Positions 28,414 to 32,324 of a stretch of 37,059 nt of DNA are shown here, one piece after another; positions within the stretch are counted from its first letter, which is position 1, and each line of letters starts with the position of its first letter. The notes beneath the pieces were generated by a model. It saw only the letters and a list, made by a program, of their open reading frames with translations, did not search any database and had not been told where the DNA came from. The position numbers and the translations under genes are program-made. Source of the stretch: a virus (Duplodnaviria > Heunggongvirae > Uroviricota > Caudoviricetes); the IMG/VR virus record IMGVR_UViG_2657245588_000006, one strand, 5' to 3'.

Positions 28414-28424
28414 ACGCCCTCCAA

Positions 28425-28489
28425 ACTAAGTTTTATTAGATGCTAATTACAAATCTATCTTTGGTCAATAAAAACTAAGATTACTTAGC
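28425..28489. promoter_or_regulatory. Right operator region with divergent promoters (pR-like on the minus strand; pRM-like unresolved)
   Basis: Two ACTAAG-N5-TTAG sites at 28425..28439 and 28474..28488; minus-strand -35 TTGACC (28463..28468) and -10 TAGCAT (28440..28445) with a 17-nt spacer, overlapped by the first site. Confidence 0.5.
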
Positions 28490-28510: not shown

Positions 28511-29137
28511 ATGGAAACGGTTGGTCAGCGTATAAAAGCTCTGAGAAGAGTTACCAGAACGTCCCAGAAAGAATTGGGTAAATTTTGTGGAGTAAGCGAC
28601 GTTGCTGTGGGGTACTGGGAGAAAGACATCAATACCCCTGGTGGGGAGGCACTTTCGAAATTAGCGAAGTTCTTCAATACGTCAATAGATTACATTCTTT
28701 ATGGTGCTGAGTTTGAAGGCAAACTCGTCACAAACATGCGCAGAGTTCCTGTAATATCGTGGGTTCAGGCTGGGCAGTTTACTGAGTGCAGGGCAGCAGA
28801 AGTGTTTAGTGAAGTGGACAAGTGGGTAGATACATCATTAAAGATTGGTGATAACTCATTTGCATTAGAGGTTAAAGGTGACTCCATGACTAACCCTAAT
28901 GGCCTCCCAACAATACCAGAAGGCGCAACAGTGATTGTAGATCCAGATGCAGAACCTCGTCATGGAAAAATAGTCATCGCTCGACTTGATGGAACAAACG
29001 AAGCTACAGTAAAAAAATTAGTCATCGATGGCCCTCAAAAGTTTTTAGTGCCATTAAATCCTCGGTATCCCAACATCCCTATCAATGGTAATTGCCTTAT
29101 CATTGGTGTAGTCAAAGGAGTTCAATACGAACTCTAA
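28511..29137 (+). CDS. cI: Prophage repressor, cI-type (HTH_XRE + S24 LexA-like autopeptidase)
   Basis: 208-aa ORF; N-terminal HTH, C-terminal GDSM Ser motif; divergent from the cro-like gene. Confidence 0.85.
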   Translation: METVGQRIKALRRVTRTSQKELGKFCGVSDVAVGYWEKDINTPGGEALSKLAKFFNTSIDYILYGAEFEGKLVTNMRRVPVISWVQAGQFTECRAAEVFSEVDKWVDTSLKIGDNSFALEVKGDSMTNPNGLPTIPEGATVIVDPDAEPRHGKIVIARLDGTNEATVKKLVIDGPQKFLVPLNPRYPNIPINGNCLIIGVVKGVQYEL

Positions 29138-29152
29138 GACCTCTCTTCTCTA

Positions 29153-29219
29153 ACTAAGGCACCGAACTAAGAAAAGTTTGGTGTTTTCTCTTGCCATAAT
29201 AACTAAGTTAAGTTAGATT
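29153..29219 (+). promoter_or_regulatory. Operator-like repeats and candidate repressor-controlled promoter after cI
   Basis: ACTAAG at 29153, 29166 and 29203; ACTAAG-N5-TTAG site at 29203..29217; -35 TTGCCA (29191..29196), 17-nt spacer, -10 TAGATT (29214..29219). Confidence 0.4.
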
Positions 29220-29321
29220 TTATGTCAAAGATAACGAACAGGCAGGACGCCCACGAAGTAGCCGCCGGTGGCGTATGAATGACCGGATGATTCGTTAAAT
29301 ACTATGTGTAAGAGAGCGCAA

Positions 29322-29524
29322 ATGAACCGTTATTTCACATGCTCGTTTTGTGGCGCAAACGAGCTGCAGGCAAAAAAATCATCGCCAAAGGCGGAAAAGA
29401 TGAAGTTGCTATCTGCTCTGAGTGCGTAGTCTTGTGTGTCGGAGCATTAATCAATATCAGCACAACTATTCAGTTCACACCAAATGAGAATGCGCCTTTA
29501 GATGCGCGGAAATCTGGAGGTTAA
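29322..29524 (+). pseudogene. ClpX-type C4 zinc-ribbon small protein, split by a -1 frameshift in an A7 tract (29372..29378)
   Basis: Frame A (ATG 29322) encodes MNRYFTCSFCGANELQAKK; frame B continues IIAKGGKDEVAICSECVVLCVGALIN to the stop at 29524; joined they give C7-x2-C10-x21-C32-x2-C35. Confidence 0.5.
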
Positions 29525-29532
29525 AGAACAAA

Positions 29533-29808
29533 ATGAAAGTCCAGATTTTAAACAATAGTGGTGAAGTCGTTTGGTCATACGACATAGCCGCTCCTGTAGA
29601 TCAGAGCGGCGATAGCTGGACCAATGGGAAACATCAGATTATGGCTGGAGTTGTATTCTCTTTACACCGTGCTTTGGAACAGGCTGAAGTATTTCCATCA
29701 GACCCTGAATGGAAATGGCCTTTTTCTATTTGTCCAAATTCGGAGAGCACATTTCAGAAAATTGGTCAGAAAGTCGCACTCGAAGAGCATCAGCCAACTG
29801 TTTTCTGA
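29533..29808 (+). CDS. Hypothetical protein (91 aa)
   Basis: ATG 8 nt after the zinc-ribbon stop; GGAGG 12 nt upstream; 3' end overlaps a convergent minus-strand ORF. Confidence 0.45.
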   Translation: MKVQILNNSGEVVWSYDIAAPVDQSGDSWTNGKHQIMAGVVFSLHRALEQAEVFPSDPEWKWPFSICPNSESTFQKIGQKVALEEHQPTVF

Positions 29809-29971
29809 TTTTTTCAGGTAACTCGTCGGCATCGCAGAAACAACAACGCTCGATCATGTTGAAAGCCGATTCGTAGAACTGTTTCTGCTGAGTGTCGCTG
29901 AGACAGGAAAAGAGCGACGTTACGATGATTTTATTAATTGCATTATCAAGTTCTTTTTCATCAAAAGTCAT
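29726..29971 (-). CDS. Hypothetical Cys-containing protein (81 aa), opposite to the cI operon
   Basis: AAGGA RBS 7 nt upstream of the ATG; contains CCFC; overlaps the 3' end of the 29533..29808 ORF by 83 nt. Confidence 0.4.
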   Translation of the reverse strand: MTFDEKELDNAINKIIVTSLFSCLSDTQQKQFYESAFNMIERCCFCDADELPEKIRKQLADALRVRLSDQFSEMCSPNLDK

Positions 29972-30209
29972 TTGATTTTCCTTTTATGTATACGGGCTTA
30001 AAAGGATACCACCGAGCCTGAAGTGGTGAAAAGACAGGCACATAACAGCTAAGTATTTTCAACCAGAGAGAATCCTTAGCGTTGTGGTGAATGCGGCTCA
30101 GCGCACGCGGGTTAAGGTTGAGGCTGACAGTCGACCTTCTGTGGATACCCACCCGTCTGGTGTGCAACCTTCGCCAGGCACCGGGAGGCACCCGGCACCA
30201 CAACTTTAT

Positions 30210-30271
30210 GCTGTGTGTAGTCTTGGCGGTACCAGTTTGTACCCTTGCTTCCGGCTGGTACCGCTCTTTTT
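30210..30271 (+). ncRNA. DicF-like small RNA candidate with intrinsic terminator
   Basis: CUUGGCGGUACCAGUUUGUACCC resembles my recollection of the DicF core UUUGGCGGUAUCAGUUUUACUCC; stem GGCGGTACCAG (30226..30236) / CTGGTACCGC (30255..30264) followed by TCTTTTT. The 5' end is not defined. Confidence 0.4.
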
Positions 30272-30408
30272 ACAAAACAGAGAAGAGCATCACCGGACGA
30301 CGGGCTCATAACCCAATCCATCCGGGCGGCTGCCACCGCAGGTGTTCTTCTCTGTTTTGTGGAGAAACCAACCGACCTTGCAGGGTCGATATGATGAGGA
30401 GCAGCAAA

Positions 30409-30771
30409 ATGGCTAGCGAACGCAGTACTGATGTGCAGGCATTTATCGGGGAGCTGGACGGCGGCGTATTTGAAACCAAAATCGGCGCAGTTCTCAGTGA
30501 AGTCGCTTCCGGTGTGATGAACACGAAAACCAAAGGTAAGGTCTCGCTTAACCTGGAAATCGAACCGTTTGATGAGAACCGTGTGAAAATAAAACATAAA
30601 CTCTCATATGTTCGCCCGACTAACCGCGGGAAAATTTCCGAAGAAGACACCACCGAAACGCCGATGTATGTCAATCGCGGTGGTCGCCTGACTATTCTGC
30701 AGGAAGACCAGGGACAATTACTGACTCTTGCCGGTGAACCTGACGGAAAACTCCGCGCAGCAGGTCATTAA
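30409..30771 (+). CDS. YfdP-like protein
   Basis: Track ORF 30091..30771 has a long extension over the structured RNA region; ATG at 30409 with GAGGAG RBS 7 nt upstream gives 120 aa. Confidence 0.55.
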   Translation: MASERSTDVQAFIGELDGGVFETKIGAVLSEVASGVMNTKTKGKVSLNLEIEPFDENRVKIKHKLSYVRPTNRGKISEEDTTETPMYVNRGGRLTILQEDQGQLLTLAGEPDGKLRAAGH

Positions 30772-30835: not shown

Positions 30836-31660
30836 ATGTCTCAGAACTTAGACGCAACCGCAATTAATCAAATCCATGCCCTTATTTCTGCTCAGGGTGT
30901 TAATGAAATTATCAGTAAGATTGGTGCCGATGCTGTGGCATTGCCTGAGAATTTCCGCATTCATGATCTGGAAAAATTTAATTTAAATCGCTTCCGTTTC
31001 CGTGGTGCGCTTTCCACTGCCAGCATCGATGACTTTACCCGTTATTCTAAAGATCTTGCAGATGAAGGCACCCGCTGCTTTATCGATGCTGATAATATGC
31101 GTGCCGTCAGTGTGCTTAACTTGGGTACTATTGATGAACCAGGTCACGCAGATAACACCGCCACTCTCAAACTGAAAAAGACAGCACCGTTCTCTGCCCT
31201 GTTGTCTGTTAACGGCGAGCGTAACTCCCAGAAGTCACTGGCAGAATGGATTGAAGACTGGGCCGACTACCTTGTGGGCTTTGATGCTAATGGTGACGCC
31301 ATTCAGGCAACCAAAGCTGCTGCGGCGATCCGTAAAATCACAATTGAAGCGAACCAGACCGCTGATTTTGAAGATAATGACTTCAGCGGCAAACGCTCCC
31401 TGATGGAGTCTGTCGAAGCGAAGACCAAAGACATTATGCCTGTGGCATTTGAATTTAAATGCGTTCCGTTTGAAGGTCTGAAAGAACGTCCGTTTAAATT
31501 ACGCCTCAGCATTATCACTGGCGATCGTCCTGTACTGGTTCTGCGCATTATTCAGCTGGAAGCGGTGCAGGAAGAAATGGCTAACGAATTTCGTGATCTG
31601 CTTGTTGAGAAATTCAAAGACAGCAAAGTAGAAACCTTTATTGGTACTTTCACCGCCTGA
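30836..31660 (+). CDS. YfdQ-like protein (DUF2303)
   Basis: 274-aa ORF with GAGGA RBS; length and position match YfdQ of CPS-53 as remembered. Confidence 0.55.
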
Positions 31661-31787
31661 TTTCATTACTGCAAATGCCCCTGCGGGGGCATTTATGGAA
31701 ACGTAATTAACTCAATAATCACCGGATGGTGAGGGCTTCCTTTTACCAGAATTCAGCGCGGTGCAGTGCATATACGTGGAGAATAAA

Positions 31788-32324
31788 ATGTCATTTATTA
31801 AAACTTTTTCCGGGAAGCATTTTTATTATGACAAGATAAATAAAGACGACATCGATATTAACGATATCGCGGTTTCCCTTTCAAATATCTGTCGCTTTGC
31901 CGGTCATCTTTCGCACTTCTACAGCGTCGCCCAACATGCGGTTCTTTGCAGCATGCTGGTGCCGCAGGAATTTGCTTTTGAAGCGTTAATGCATGATGCA
32001 ACAGAAGCGTATTGCCAGGACATCCCGGCTCCACTGAAACGCCTTCTTCCTGACTATAAACGGATGGAAGAAAAAATAGACGCCGTAATCCGTGAGAAAT
32101 ACGGGTTACCCCCGGTTATGAGCACGCCCGTGAAATATGCCGATCTCATCATGCTGGCAACCGAACGCCGCGATCTCGGGCTTGATGATGGCTCTTTCTG
32201 GCCTGTACTGGAAGGTATCCCGGCAACAGAGATGTTCAAAGTGATTCCACTGTCGCCAGGCCATGCCTATGGGATGTTTATGGAACGTTTTAACGAGTTA
32301 TCGGAGTTACGCAAATGCGCATGA
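31788..32324 (+). CDS. HD-domain phosphohydrolase, YfdR-like 5'-deoxynucleotidase
   Basis: ATG at 31788 with GGAG RBS gives 178 aa; His and His-Asp motifs (HAVLCSM, LMHDATE). Confidence 0.65.
   Translation: MSFIKTFSGKHFYYDKINKDDIDINDIAVSLSNICRFAGHLSHFYSVAQHAVLCSMLVPQEFAFEALMHDATEAYCQDIPAPLKRLLPDYKRMEEKIDAVIREKYGLPPVMSTPVKYADLIMLATERRDLGLDDGSFWPVLEGIPATEMFKVIPLSPGHAYGMFMERFNELSELRKCA

Follow-up and report, generated by a model that had tools for sequence, protein, structure and literature searches.

STnc100 is a multicopy, prophage-borne RNA family of the enterobacteria. In EDL933, 11 copies are expressed, one of which is confirmed by Northern blot. One copy lies 75 nt 3′ of stx2B (PMC12370729), and the STnc100 RNA predicted 3′ of this gene partly overlaps EcOnc27, an Hfq-binding small regulatory RNA (sRNA) (PMC12711010). 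In a 2026 preprint, the family is described as related to PasD, an Hfq-bound sRNA with targets identified by RIL-seq, in which interacting RNAs are ligated and sequenced. DicF, the 53-nt sRNA of the Qin prophage of E. coli K-12, is made by termination at an internal terminator and RNase E processing, and a 72-nt form results from RNase III cleavage of the read-through dicBF RNA (PMC9438474). The present analysis concerns a structured locus in the virus record IMGVR_UViG_2657245588_000006 (the whole stretch of 37,059 nt is called the window, and positions refer to it unless another sequence is named), which is an SfV-like lambdoid prophage of E. coli. Two RNA elements, at 30051–30273 and 30267–30365 of the + strand, precede a yfdP homologue. 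A first-pass annotation had proposed a DicF-like sRNA candidate here. The sequence and model comparisons described below indicate instead a divergent variant of the STnc100 family, joined to a tRNA-like motif that is apparently undescribed so far.

The STnc100-like RNA

Permissive Rfam scans returned a full-length match to the STnc100 model (RF02076, model positions 1–206 of 206) at 30051–30273, with a score of 44.3 bits and an E-value of 2.4e-8. The matched RNA of about 220 nt comprises a 5′ leader hairpin, a pseudoknotted core, a linker and a terminator. The 22-nt invariant motif of the family, CACCGGGAGGCACCCGGCACCA, was present exactly at 30179–30200; the closing helix and the GGUGAAU junction were also found (30081–30092 and 30179–30204, motif included). 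When IMG/VR was scanned with this motif, more than 120 loci were recovered, including canonical STnc100 members at 73–132 bits. Unlike the latter, the type represented by SfV and the window was not reported at the STnc100 gathering threshold. Sister copies of the window type in ST64B, Cronobacter phage phiES15, P1 and JL22 scored 33–41 bits with the same model, and the version in mEp460 was more diverged still, with an identical closing helix. In the window, the P2 hairpin of canonical members is replaced by UGCG-GCUCAG-CGCA and a downstream-closing helix, GCGGGU/ACCCGU. These comparisons place 30051–30273 in the prophage STnc100/PasD family, as a divergent member that scores below the threshold.

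Canonical members were also observed in tandem arrays. Four copies lie directly 3′ of tRNA genes in locus L020 (2265–3380, − strand), and arrays also occur in L027, L044, L058 and L078; outside L020, pairs lie 484 nt apart.

The core (30081–30204, + strand) folds into a closed multi-helix structure. Its 9-bp closing helix, P1 (30081–30089 with 30196–30204), is accompanied by a small hairpin (UGCG at 30092–30095 with CGCA at 30102–30105), helix Px (30108–30112 with 30151–30155), helix P4 (30157–30162 with 30172–30177) and helix P5 (CCGGG at 30181–30185 with CCCGG at 30191–30195), which is located inside the invariant motif. Direct reading of the sequences revealed compensatory changes in helices P1 and Px in phage P1, phiES15 and L022, and the GCGGGU/ACCCGU helix covaries, reading GCGGGG/CCCCGU in phiES15 and GCGGAA/UUUCCGC in L022. 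Among 30 canonical representatives, 80% of the cells in the nested helices and the pseudoknot were paired, compared to 38–50% when the partners were slid; this column-wise count understates P4 and the pseudoknot because the MAFFT alignment shifts the registers of the loop strands. In the same set, the covariation score was 0.202 versus 0.131 for shuffles (none of 500 reached the observed value), and the closing helix was 96% paired, with AU/GC swaps.

The core contains a pseudoknot that is supported by covariation. AAGGUUG (30114–30120) pairs with the P4 loop, CAACCUU (30165–30171). The 15 nt located 3′ of P2 were compared with the loop of the hairpin that directly adjoins the invariant motif, and significance was assessed by a cross-pairing permutation; this procedure replaced an earlier per-sequence shuffle test that was underpowered and in which P4 had been mis-set in several sequences. 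In 35 family members, the mean pairing run was 6.86 nt within a member's own sequence and 4.47 nt in cross-paired controls. A mean as high as that observed did not arise in any of 5000 permutations, and the pairing is made by 26 distinct strand sequences. Variants include AAGGCUG/CAGCCUU in phiES15, UGGUUAU/AUAACCA in phage P1 and an 11-bp version in L022. The Rfam STnc100 model holds no pseudoknot, and the term was not found in the 2026 preprint on the family. A lambda-like boxA/boxB arrangement in CGCUCUUUUUACAA...GGGCUCAUAACCC was also considered and was rejected, as SfV, phiNP and ST64B do not retain the boxA-like bases.

The RNA ends in an intrinsic terminator (30225–30272, + strand), the hairpin of which had been called DicF-like. 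The 10-bp stem and the TCTTTTT described for it were confirmed by a sequence check and by RNAfold: the stem is perfect at 30226–30235/30255–30264 and was lengthened by RNAfold to 13 bp (30225–30237/30253–30265, ΔG −21.2 kcal/mol), and UCUUUUU (30265–30271, with the U tract at 30267–30271) lies directly 3′ of it. As had been proposed, such a terminator would end an sRNA-like transcript. The folding of 30040–30375 was far better than that of shuffled sequences (z = −6.5; none of 100 was as good). At the equivalent position in ST64B, a hairpin with a wholly different stem (GUCGGCGUC...GACGCCGAC) is followed by the same CUUUUUACA; in phiNP, the loop differs from that of the window, and the CUUUUUACA after the terminator is invariant. 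Because the ST64B stem is wholly different, the structure of the terminator, not the sequence of its stem, is under selection, with no constraint of the seed type. The hairpin (30223–30275) also recurs alone, at 96–98% identity, in mEp460, cdtI, 2H10 and many Stx2a/Stx2c phages, and these stand-alone copies are always located about 134 nt upstream of a yfdP homologue. A terminator-like hairpin was present in 73 of 98 unique instances of the family, at a median distance of 30 nt 3′ of the invariant motif (25 nt in the window).

Core and terminator are connected by a single-stranded linker, UUUAUGCUGUGUGUAGUCUU (30205–30224, + strand), that is kept in SfV, phiNP, ST64B and phiES15 although the terminator stems differ. 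Since the stretch of about 17 nt directly 5′ of the terminator, UUGCUGUGUGUAGUCUU, is conserved even where these stems differ, the linker is probably the best candidate for a pairing (seed) region. A riboswitch-like antiterminator was also tried, in which, with the core unfolded, the 3′ arm of P4 (CGCCAGG, 30172–30178) would form 7 bp with CUUGGCG, where the 5′ arm of the terminator begins (30222–30228). This pairing is not conserved in ST64B or phiES15 and is probably due to chance.

Comparison with DicF and the dicF locus

The first-pass annotation implied a DicF homologue that blocks translation of ftsZ, and hence cell division, during induction. Part of that proposal stands. When K-12 DicF was aligned locally to both strands of the window, the best alignment fell on the terminator hairpin (score 30; runner-up, 23) and covered UUGGCGGUA[U/C]CAGUUU, which is identical at 15 of 16 positions and lies in the 5′ stem arm, together with the U tail. 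The score is marginally above chance: 30 shuffled DicF sequences aligned to the whole window averaged 24.2 and reached at most 29. The position is likewise analogous. Both hairpins are intra-operonic in a repressor-controlled early-left operon, both owe their 3′ end to a Rho-independent terminator inside the operon, which transcription has to pass before the downstream genes are expressed, and Qin has the same core module immediately 3′ of dicF.

The identity itself failed. With the DicF model (RF00039), the hairpin scored 19.1 bits (E = 0.13 even in a 601-nt search) against a gathering threshold of 48, and authentic K-12 DicF, used as a positive control, scored 76.7 bits; the whole window had no match at gathering for any Rfam family. 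Pairing with the K-12 ftsZ initiation region was assessed with a home-made, windowed hybridization-plus-accessibility calculation, as unrestricted RNAduplex runs gave meaningless end-to-end duplexes. DicF recovered its known site over the Shine-Dalgarno sequence (−29 to −7, net −6.3 kcal/mol) through nt 31–52, i.e. its loop and 3′ arm; the calculation is crude, in that no more than 32 of 40 shuffles were outscored by DicF. For the hairpin in the window, the best net value was +8.9 kcal/mol, and 39 of 40 shuffles did better; the calculation placed no site over the Shine-Dalgarno sequence and revealed no ftsZ-complementary seed. The residues with which DicF pairs to ftsZ are exactly those that are not common to the window hairpin, and in ST64B the stem sequence is replaced altogether. 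The hairpin in the window is not DicF; the call is refuted by the covariance model and by the ftsZ calculation alike, and a DicF homologue acting on ftsZ is considered extremely improbable. There is therefore no cell-division function to attach to the prophage. The hairpin differs from DicF in extent as well, being the tail of a structured RNA of about 220 nt and not a 53-nt sRNA. Weak matches to the Rfam family "ftsZ-DE" (window 30049–30108, − strand; Qin locus L004 939–982, − strand) were judged spurious. They are the reverse complement of the 5′ end of the core (GUGGUGAAUGCGGCUCAGCGCAC), and the name of the family could mislead with regard to ftsZ.

The core module in Qin is an unannotated, diverged copy of the window type that lies between the dicF terminator and dicB (NC_000913.3 1649446–1649586; L004 947–1087). 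It scored 34.1 bits (E = 3e-6) with the STnc100 model. Its P5 is the compensatory variant CCUGG/CCAGG, its closing helix reads UUUUGUGAUG/CAUCACAAAA, and about 20 nt separate its end from the start codon of dicB. No STnc100-like core was found upstream of K-12 dicF. DicF and the core are thus neighboring modules of homologous early-left operons. With an end 19 nt past that of the 53-nt species, the 72-nt form of DicF would stop within the 5′ strand of the closing helix of the Qin core.

A region annotated as "dicF-like" in phage P1 has its homologue in the sequence upstream of K-12 dicF and not in DicF, and the DicF model found no match in it. The homologous stretch (L006 1215–1316 in P1; L004 760–880 in K-12) reads GCGCGGCGGUAAG.AUGGC...CAGGUUGACCAU.CGC.UAAGUG.CAAC and looks like another conserved RNA of these operons.

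The tRNA-like three-way junction

The second element (30267–30365, + strand) is a three-way junction on a 25-bp basal stem (30267–30291/30341–30365), with a ΔG of −51 kcal/mol for the whole fold. The 13-bp inverted repeat noted earlier (30275–30287/30346–30358) is present as claimed, as the core of a 25-nt inverted repeat (30272–30296/30336–30360) that is 84% complementary. Arm A (CCGGA at 30293–30297 with UCCGG at 30321–30325) encloses GGG (30302–30304), CUCAUAA (30305–30311) and CCC (30312–30314), i.e. a 7-nt loop of the anticodon type with CAU, carried on three G:C pairs like that of initiator tRNA; arm B is a small hairpin (GCGG at 30326–30329 with CCGC at 30336–30339). In eight sequences, arm A showed compensatory double changes at four of its nine pairs. 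The apical motif, ACGGGNUCAUANCCCAAUCYA, is nearly invariant in E. coli, Shigella, Salmonella, Citrobacter, P1 and Klebsiella phages and is kept on quite different basal stems. No matching Rfam family was found for this element in the permissive scans. Because its 5′ arm includes the U tract of the terminator, the element can fold only in read-through transcripts. The basal stem is long enough for RNase III and could serve as its substrate.

The loop and its stem resemble those of a tRNA with a CAU anticodon (initiator or Ile2 type) and those of tRNA-mimic operators in mRNAs. In the Klebsiella phages GZ7, Chronis and ST11-VIM1phi8.1, the second element follows tRNA genes at the spacing of a tRNA array, and its stem is acceptor-like, with ACCA or GCCA at the end (GGCCUGA...CAGGCCACCA in GZ7). 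ST11-VIM1phi8.1 has, in this order, a promoter, the core, terminators, tRNA-Asn, the tRNA-like element, a terminator and the lysis genes. The differences are that the second element has neither a D arm nor a canonical T loop and that the version in the window has a 25-bp basal stem and no CCA. A true tRNA gene was rejected: ARAGORN found no tRNA genes in the window, and the Klebsiella relatives were not called either. Phage P1 carries two copies of the second element, each immediately 5′ of a core start. These tandem units (L006 ~2130–2623; AF234172.1 ~69706–70199, + strand, in the ban operon) overlap the annotated plp and upl coding sequences of the opposite strand.

A coding origin of the second element, as a 49-aa open reading frame (ORF) starting with TTG or as the "frameshifted" coding sequence called by the Prokaryotic Genome Annotation Pipeline (PGAP), was rejected in view of a 25-nt insertion in phiNP and of conservation that follows the helices. 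The PGAP call occurs in the identical genome NZ_CP029973, where 30084–30394 (L005 2635–2945) is annotated as a "frameshifted hypothetical protein" pseudogene.

That annotation would fit a locus made of largely non-functional mosaic debris, in which an ordinary terminator lies between recombined phage modules next to the decayed remnant of a tRNA gene. The locus is clearly modular and mosaic, and the Klebsiella versions, with their place in a tRNA array and their acceptor-like stem and NCCA end, escape ARAGORN. However, both modules are conserved in Escherichia, Shigella, Salmonella, Citrobacter, Cronobacter, Klebsiella and P1-like phages, compensatory changes keep the helices and the pseudoknot, and the apical motif is retained on quite different basal stems. 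Debris is a very unlikely explanation.

Operon setting, proposed mechanism and related systems

The interval 29950–30420 matches several E. coli chromosomes at 100% identity and Shigella phage SfV at 98.5%; 2784 of 5426 complete E. coli genomes contain similar sequence. The + strand of the window is the "leftward" early direction. A gene for a LexA-like S24 repressor (S24 peptidase) occupies 28511–29137, and the AACTAAG-type repeats of the cro-cI operator region (28424–28488) recur directly 3′ of it, at 29165–29226. There they overlap TTGCCA-17-TAGATT (29191–29219, + strand), the sole promoter-like site on that strand at these repeats. On this basis, the repeats are probably operator copies and the site pL, and the early-left operon would be repressor-controlled because the repeats are taken as operators. 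The RNA locus lies approximately 0.85–1 kb into the pL transcript, at the position of tL1 in lambda, with two small ORFs before it and the yfdPQR block after it: the yfdP homologue (30409–30771, + strand) is the first gene 3′ of both RNA elements and is followed by yfdQ (30836–31660) and yfdR (31761–32324). Further downstream are xis and int, placed by comparison with SfV. The first-pass annotation was thus sound in assigning structured noncoding RNA to the early-left operon of a lambda-like prophage, just 5′ of yfdP.

Several features of the surroundings were recorded. A small ORF at 29304–29524 resembles a ClpX zinc finger (Pfam zf-C4_ClpX, 21.7 bits; phrog_5259); it lies in two frames, split at the A7 run 29371–29377, and represents a frameshifted pseudogene or else a slippery site. 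The ORFs at 29533–29808 (+) and 29726–29971 (−) are convergent and overlap by 83 nt. Both have strong, full-length PHROG matches (phrog_3195 and phrog_3311), and the + member is annotated in SfV and the − member by PGAP; transcription of the latter would oppose pL. SfV carries a gathering-level C4 antisense RNA (82 bits) and isrK (64 bits) near its antirepressor region (L001 285–473, − strand), and isrK is also present in ST64B. The region right of cro in the window differs from that of SfV, since the window lacks any gathering-level Rfam match.

The core is consistently co-directional with, and just 5′ of, the first genes of long operons. It follows the repressor and precedes yfdP in the window, ST64B and mEp460; it precedes kil-gam in phiES15; it lies 34 nt before tciA in the C1-repressed ban operon of P1; and in Klebsiella phages, where a strong promoter lies between Q and the lysis genes, it begins at about +1 of this promoter. 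The order of repressor, core and first early genes is the same in ST64B, phiES15 and mEp460. ST64B, phiES15 and P1-like phages have the core without the terminator hairpin of the window type. A promoter of at least 9/12 abuts the core in only 18 of the 98 unique instances, and thus most copies of the family are operon-embedded and are not stand-alone genes. In the window, a weak promoter-like sequence, AAGACA-17-TATTTT (8/12; 30031–30059, + strand), is a possible promoter of its own, with a start about 15 nt before the closing helix.

The reading favored here, which we hold to be slightly more probable than its negation, is that the locus combines an intra-operonic sRNA with an attenuator and that a hairpin for the processing or stabilization of the yfdP message comes after them. 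It builds on sequences, folds, covariation, homology, operon position and modularity, all of which were shown. Upon prophage induction, transcripts from pL would cross the two small immediate-early ORFs and then the STnc100-like module. A fraction would stop at the terminator, freeing a stable, structured RNA that ends in a hairpin and U tail, the usual module for Hfq binding, with the linker as its likely pairing region. The remaining transcripts would read through, and only in these could the second module fold; it would most likely serve as a processing site (through RNase III cleavage of the long stem), as a 5′ stabilizer of the message for yfdP-yfdQ-yfdR...xis-int, or as both. Termination efficiency, Hfq binding, targets in trans and nuclease processing are the parts of this scheme that we infer. 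Precedents by analogy may be found in the Hfq-bound PasD relatives with RIL-seq targets, the overlap with EcOnc27 and the expression in EDL933 for action in trans, and in DicF for an internal terminator combined with RNase III processing of read-through RNA (PMC9438474). The logic of production would be that of DicF in the dicB operon, with a different seed that is not directed at ftsZ.

Several points weigh against this scheme. The STnc100 score is a near miss, just under the gathering threshold of 47 bits, and the canonical P2 hairpin, CCCCC-loop-GGGG, is not present in the window subfamily. The U tract of the terminator consists of only five U's. No promoter of at least 9/12 abuts the core in the window, and pL is presumably repressed in lysogens. 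Finally, the cores of P1 and K-12 Qin have no terminator and almost abut the next ORF (34 nt to tciA and about 20 nt to dicB), and for this reason a cis-acting leader fits them better than a stand-alone sRNA.

Such a leader could be formed by the core alone or with the tRNA-like element and would act on the transcribing complex or the nascent transcript, controlling read-through of the adjacent terminator or the processing or stability of the downstream mRNA. Functionally, it would correspond to the put RNA of HK022 and HK639, or to the lambda nutL-N leader, in phages without a recognizable N protein. Besides the P1 and Qin copies, the constant placement of the core at the head of long phage operons agrees with a role in cis, and so does the co-occurrence of core and tRNA-like element in three unrelated types of phage operon. 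The 22-nt motif and the junction are extremely conserved while the arms vary freely, which suggests a conserved host factor and not a seed. No recognizable antiterminator domain was found in any early-left protein of the window. On the other hand, the relatives of the core are documented as Hfq-bound trans regulators; the presence of canonical copies 3′ of stx2B, and of tandem arrays with as many as four of them, would be odd for an antiterminator; no alternative antiterminator pairing is conserved; and there is no sequence or model similarity to the put RNAs of HK022 or HK639. A cis-acting leader is, on balance, rather unlikely, while remaining a serious alternative to the sRNA-plus-attenuator reading.

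A more far-reaching version, regarded as quite doubtful, is that core and tRNA-like junction constitute a previously unrecognized, protein-independent RNA system for read-through and/or processing at the entry of operons, namely pL (SfV-like phages), ban (P1), pR′ (Klebsiella phages) and dicB (Qin). If true, it would be a counterpart of N/nut or put that is made of RNA and folded differently, and the abundant "STnc100 sRNAs" of lysogens would be terminated by-products of it. The pseudoknot, the Qin copy of the core and the tRNA-like motif render the choice among a trans regulator, a cis leader and both directly testable for the "STnc100 sRNAs".

Among the known systems, the STnc100-like module is closest to STnc100/PasD/EcOnc27/sRNA103. 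The window copy shares with these RNAs a full-length model match, the 22-nt motif, the GGUGAAU junction, the closing helix and carriage by a prophage, as well as a P4 hairpin with a loop-to-upstream pseudoknot, a linker of about 25–30 nt and an intrinsic terminator. It differs in falling under gathering, in its replaced P2, in lacking annotation in genomes and in being located in an early-left operon, whereas canonical copies are in the late region; moreover, its terminator module is common to phages with another core. It represents a divergent STnc100-type subfamily just under the Rfam threshold, which for that reason goes unannotated or is mis-annotated as a frameshifted pseudogene, even though similar sequence is present in about half of the complete E. 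coli genomes.

The put RNAs of HK022 and HK639 are comparable in being structured RNAs in early-operon leaders, 5′ of terminators, in lambdoid phages without an N-type protein, and some STnc100-family members also start at about +1 of a strong promoter. Homology was rejected: the putL sequences of the two phages are alike and have nothing detectable in common with the core, and the STnc100 model found no match in HK022 or HK639. The architectures differ, as put consists of two stem-loops with a triplex and the core is a closed multi-helix pseudoknot. The lambda 6S pR′-tR′ RNA and StxS are promoter-proximal or intra-operonic prophage transcripts, the terminator of which is bypassed in lytic growth. 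Klebsiella members of the family occupy exactly this position between Q and the lysis genes; the window copy, in contrast, resides in the pL operon, approximately 0.85 kb from the promoter.

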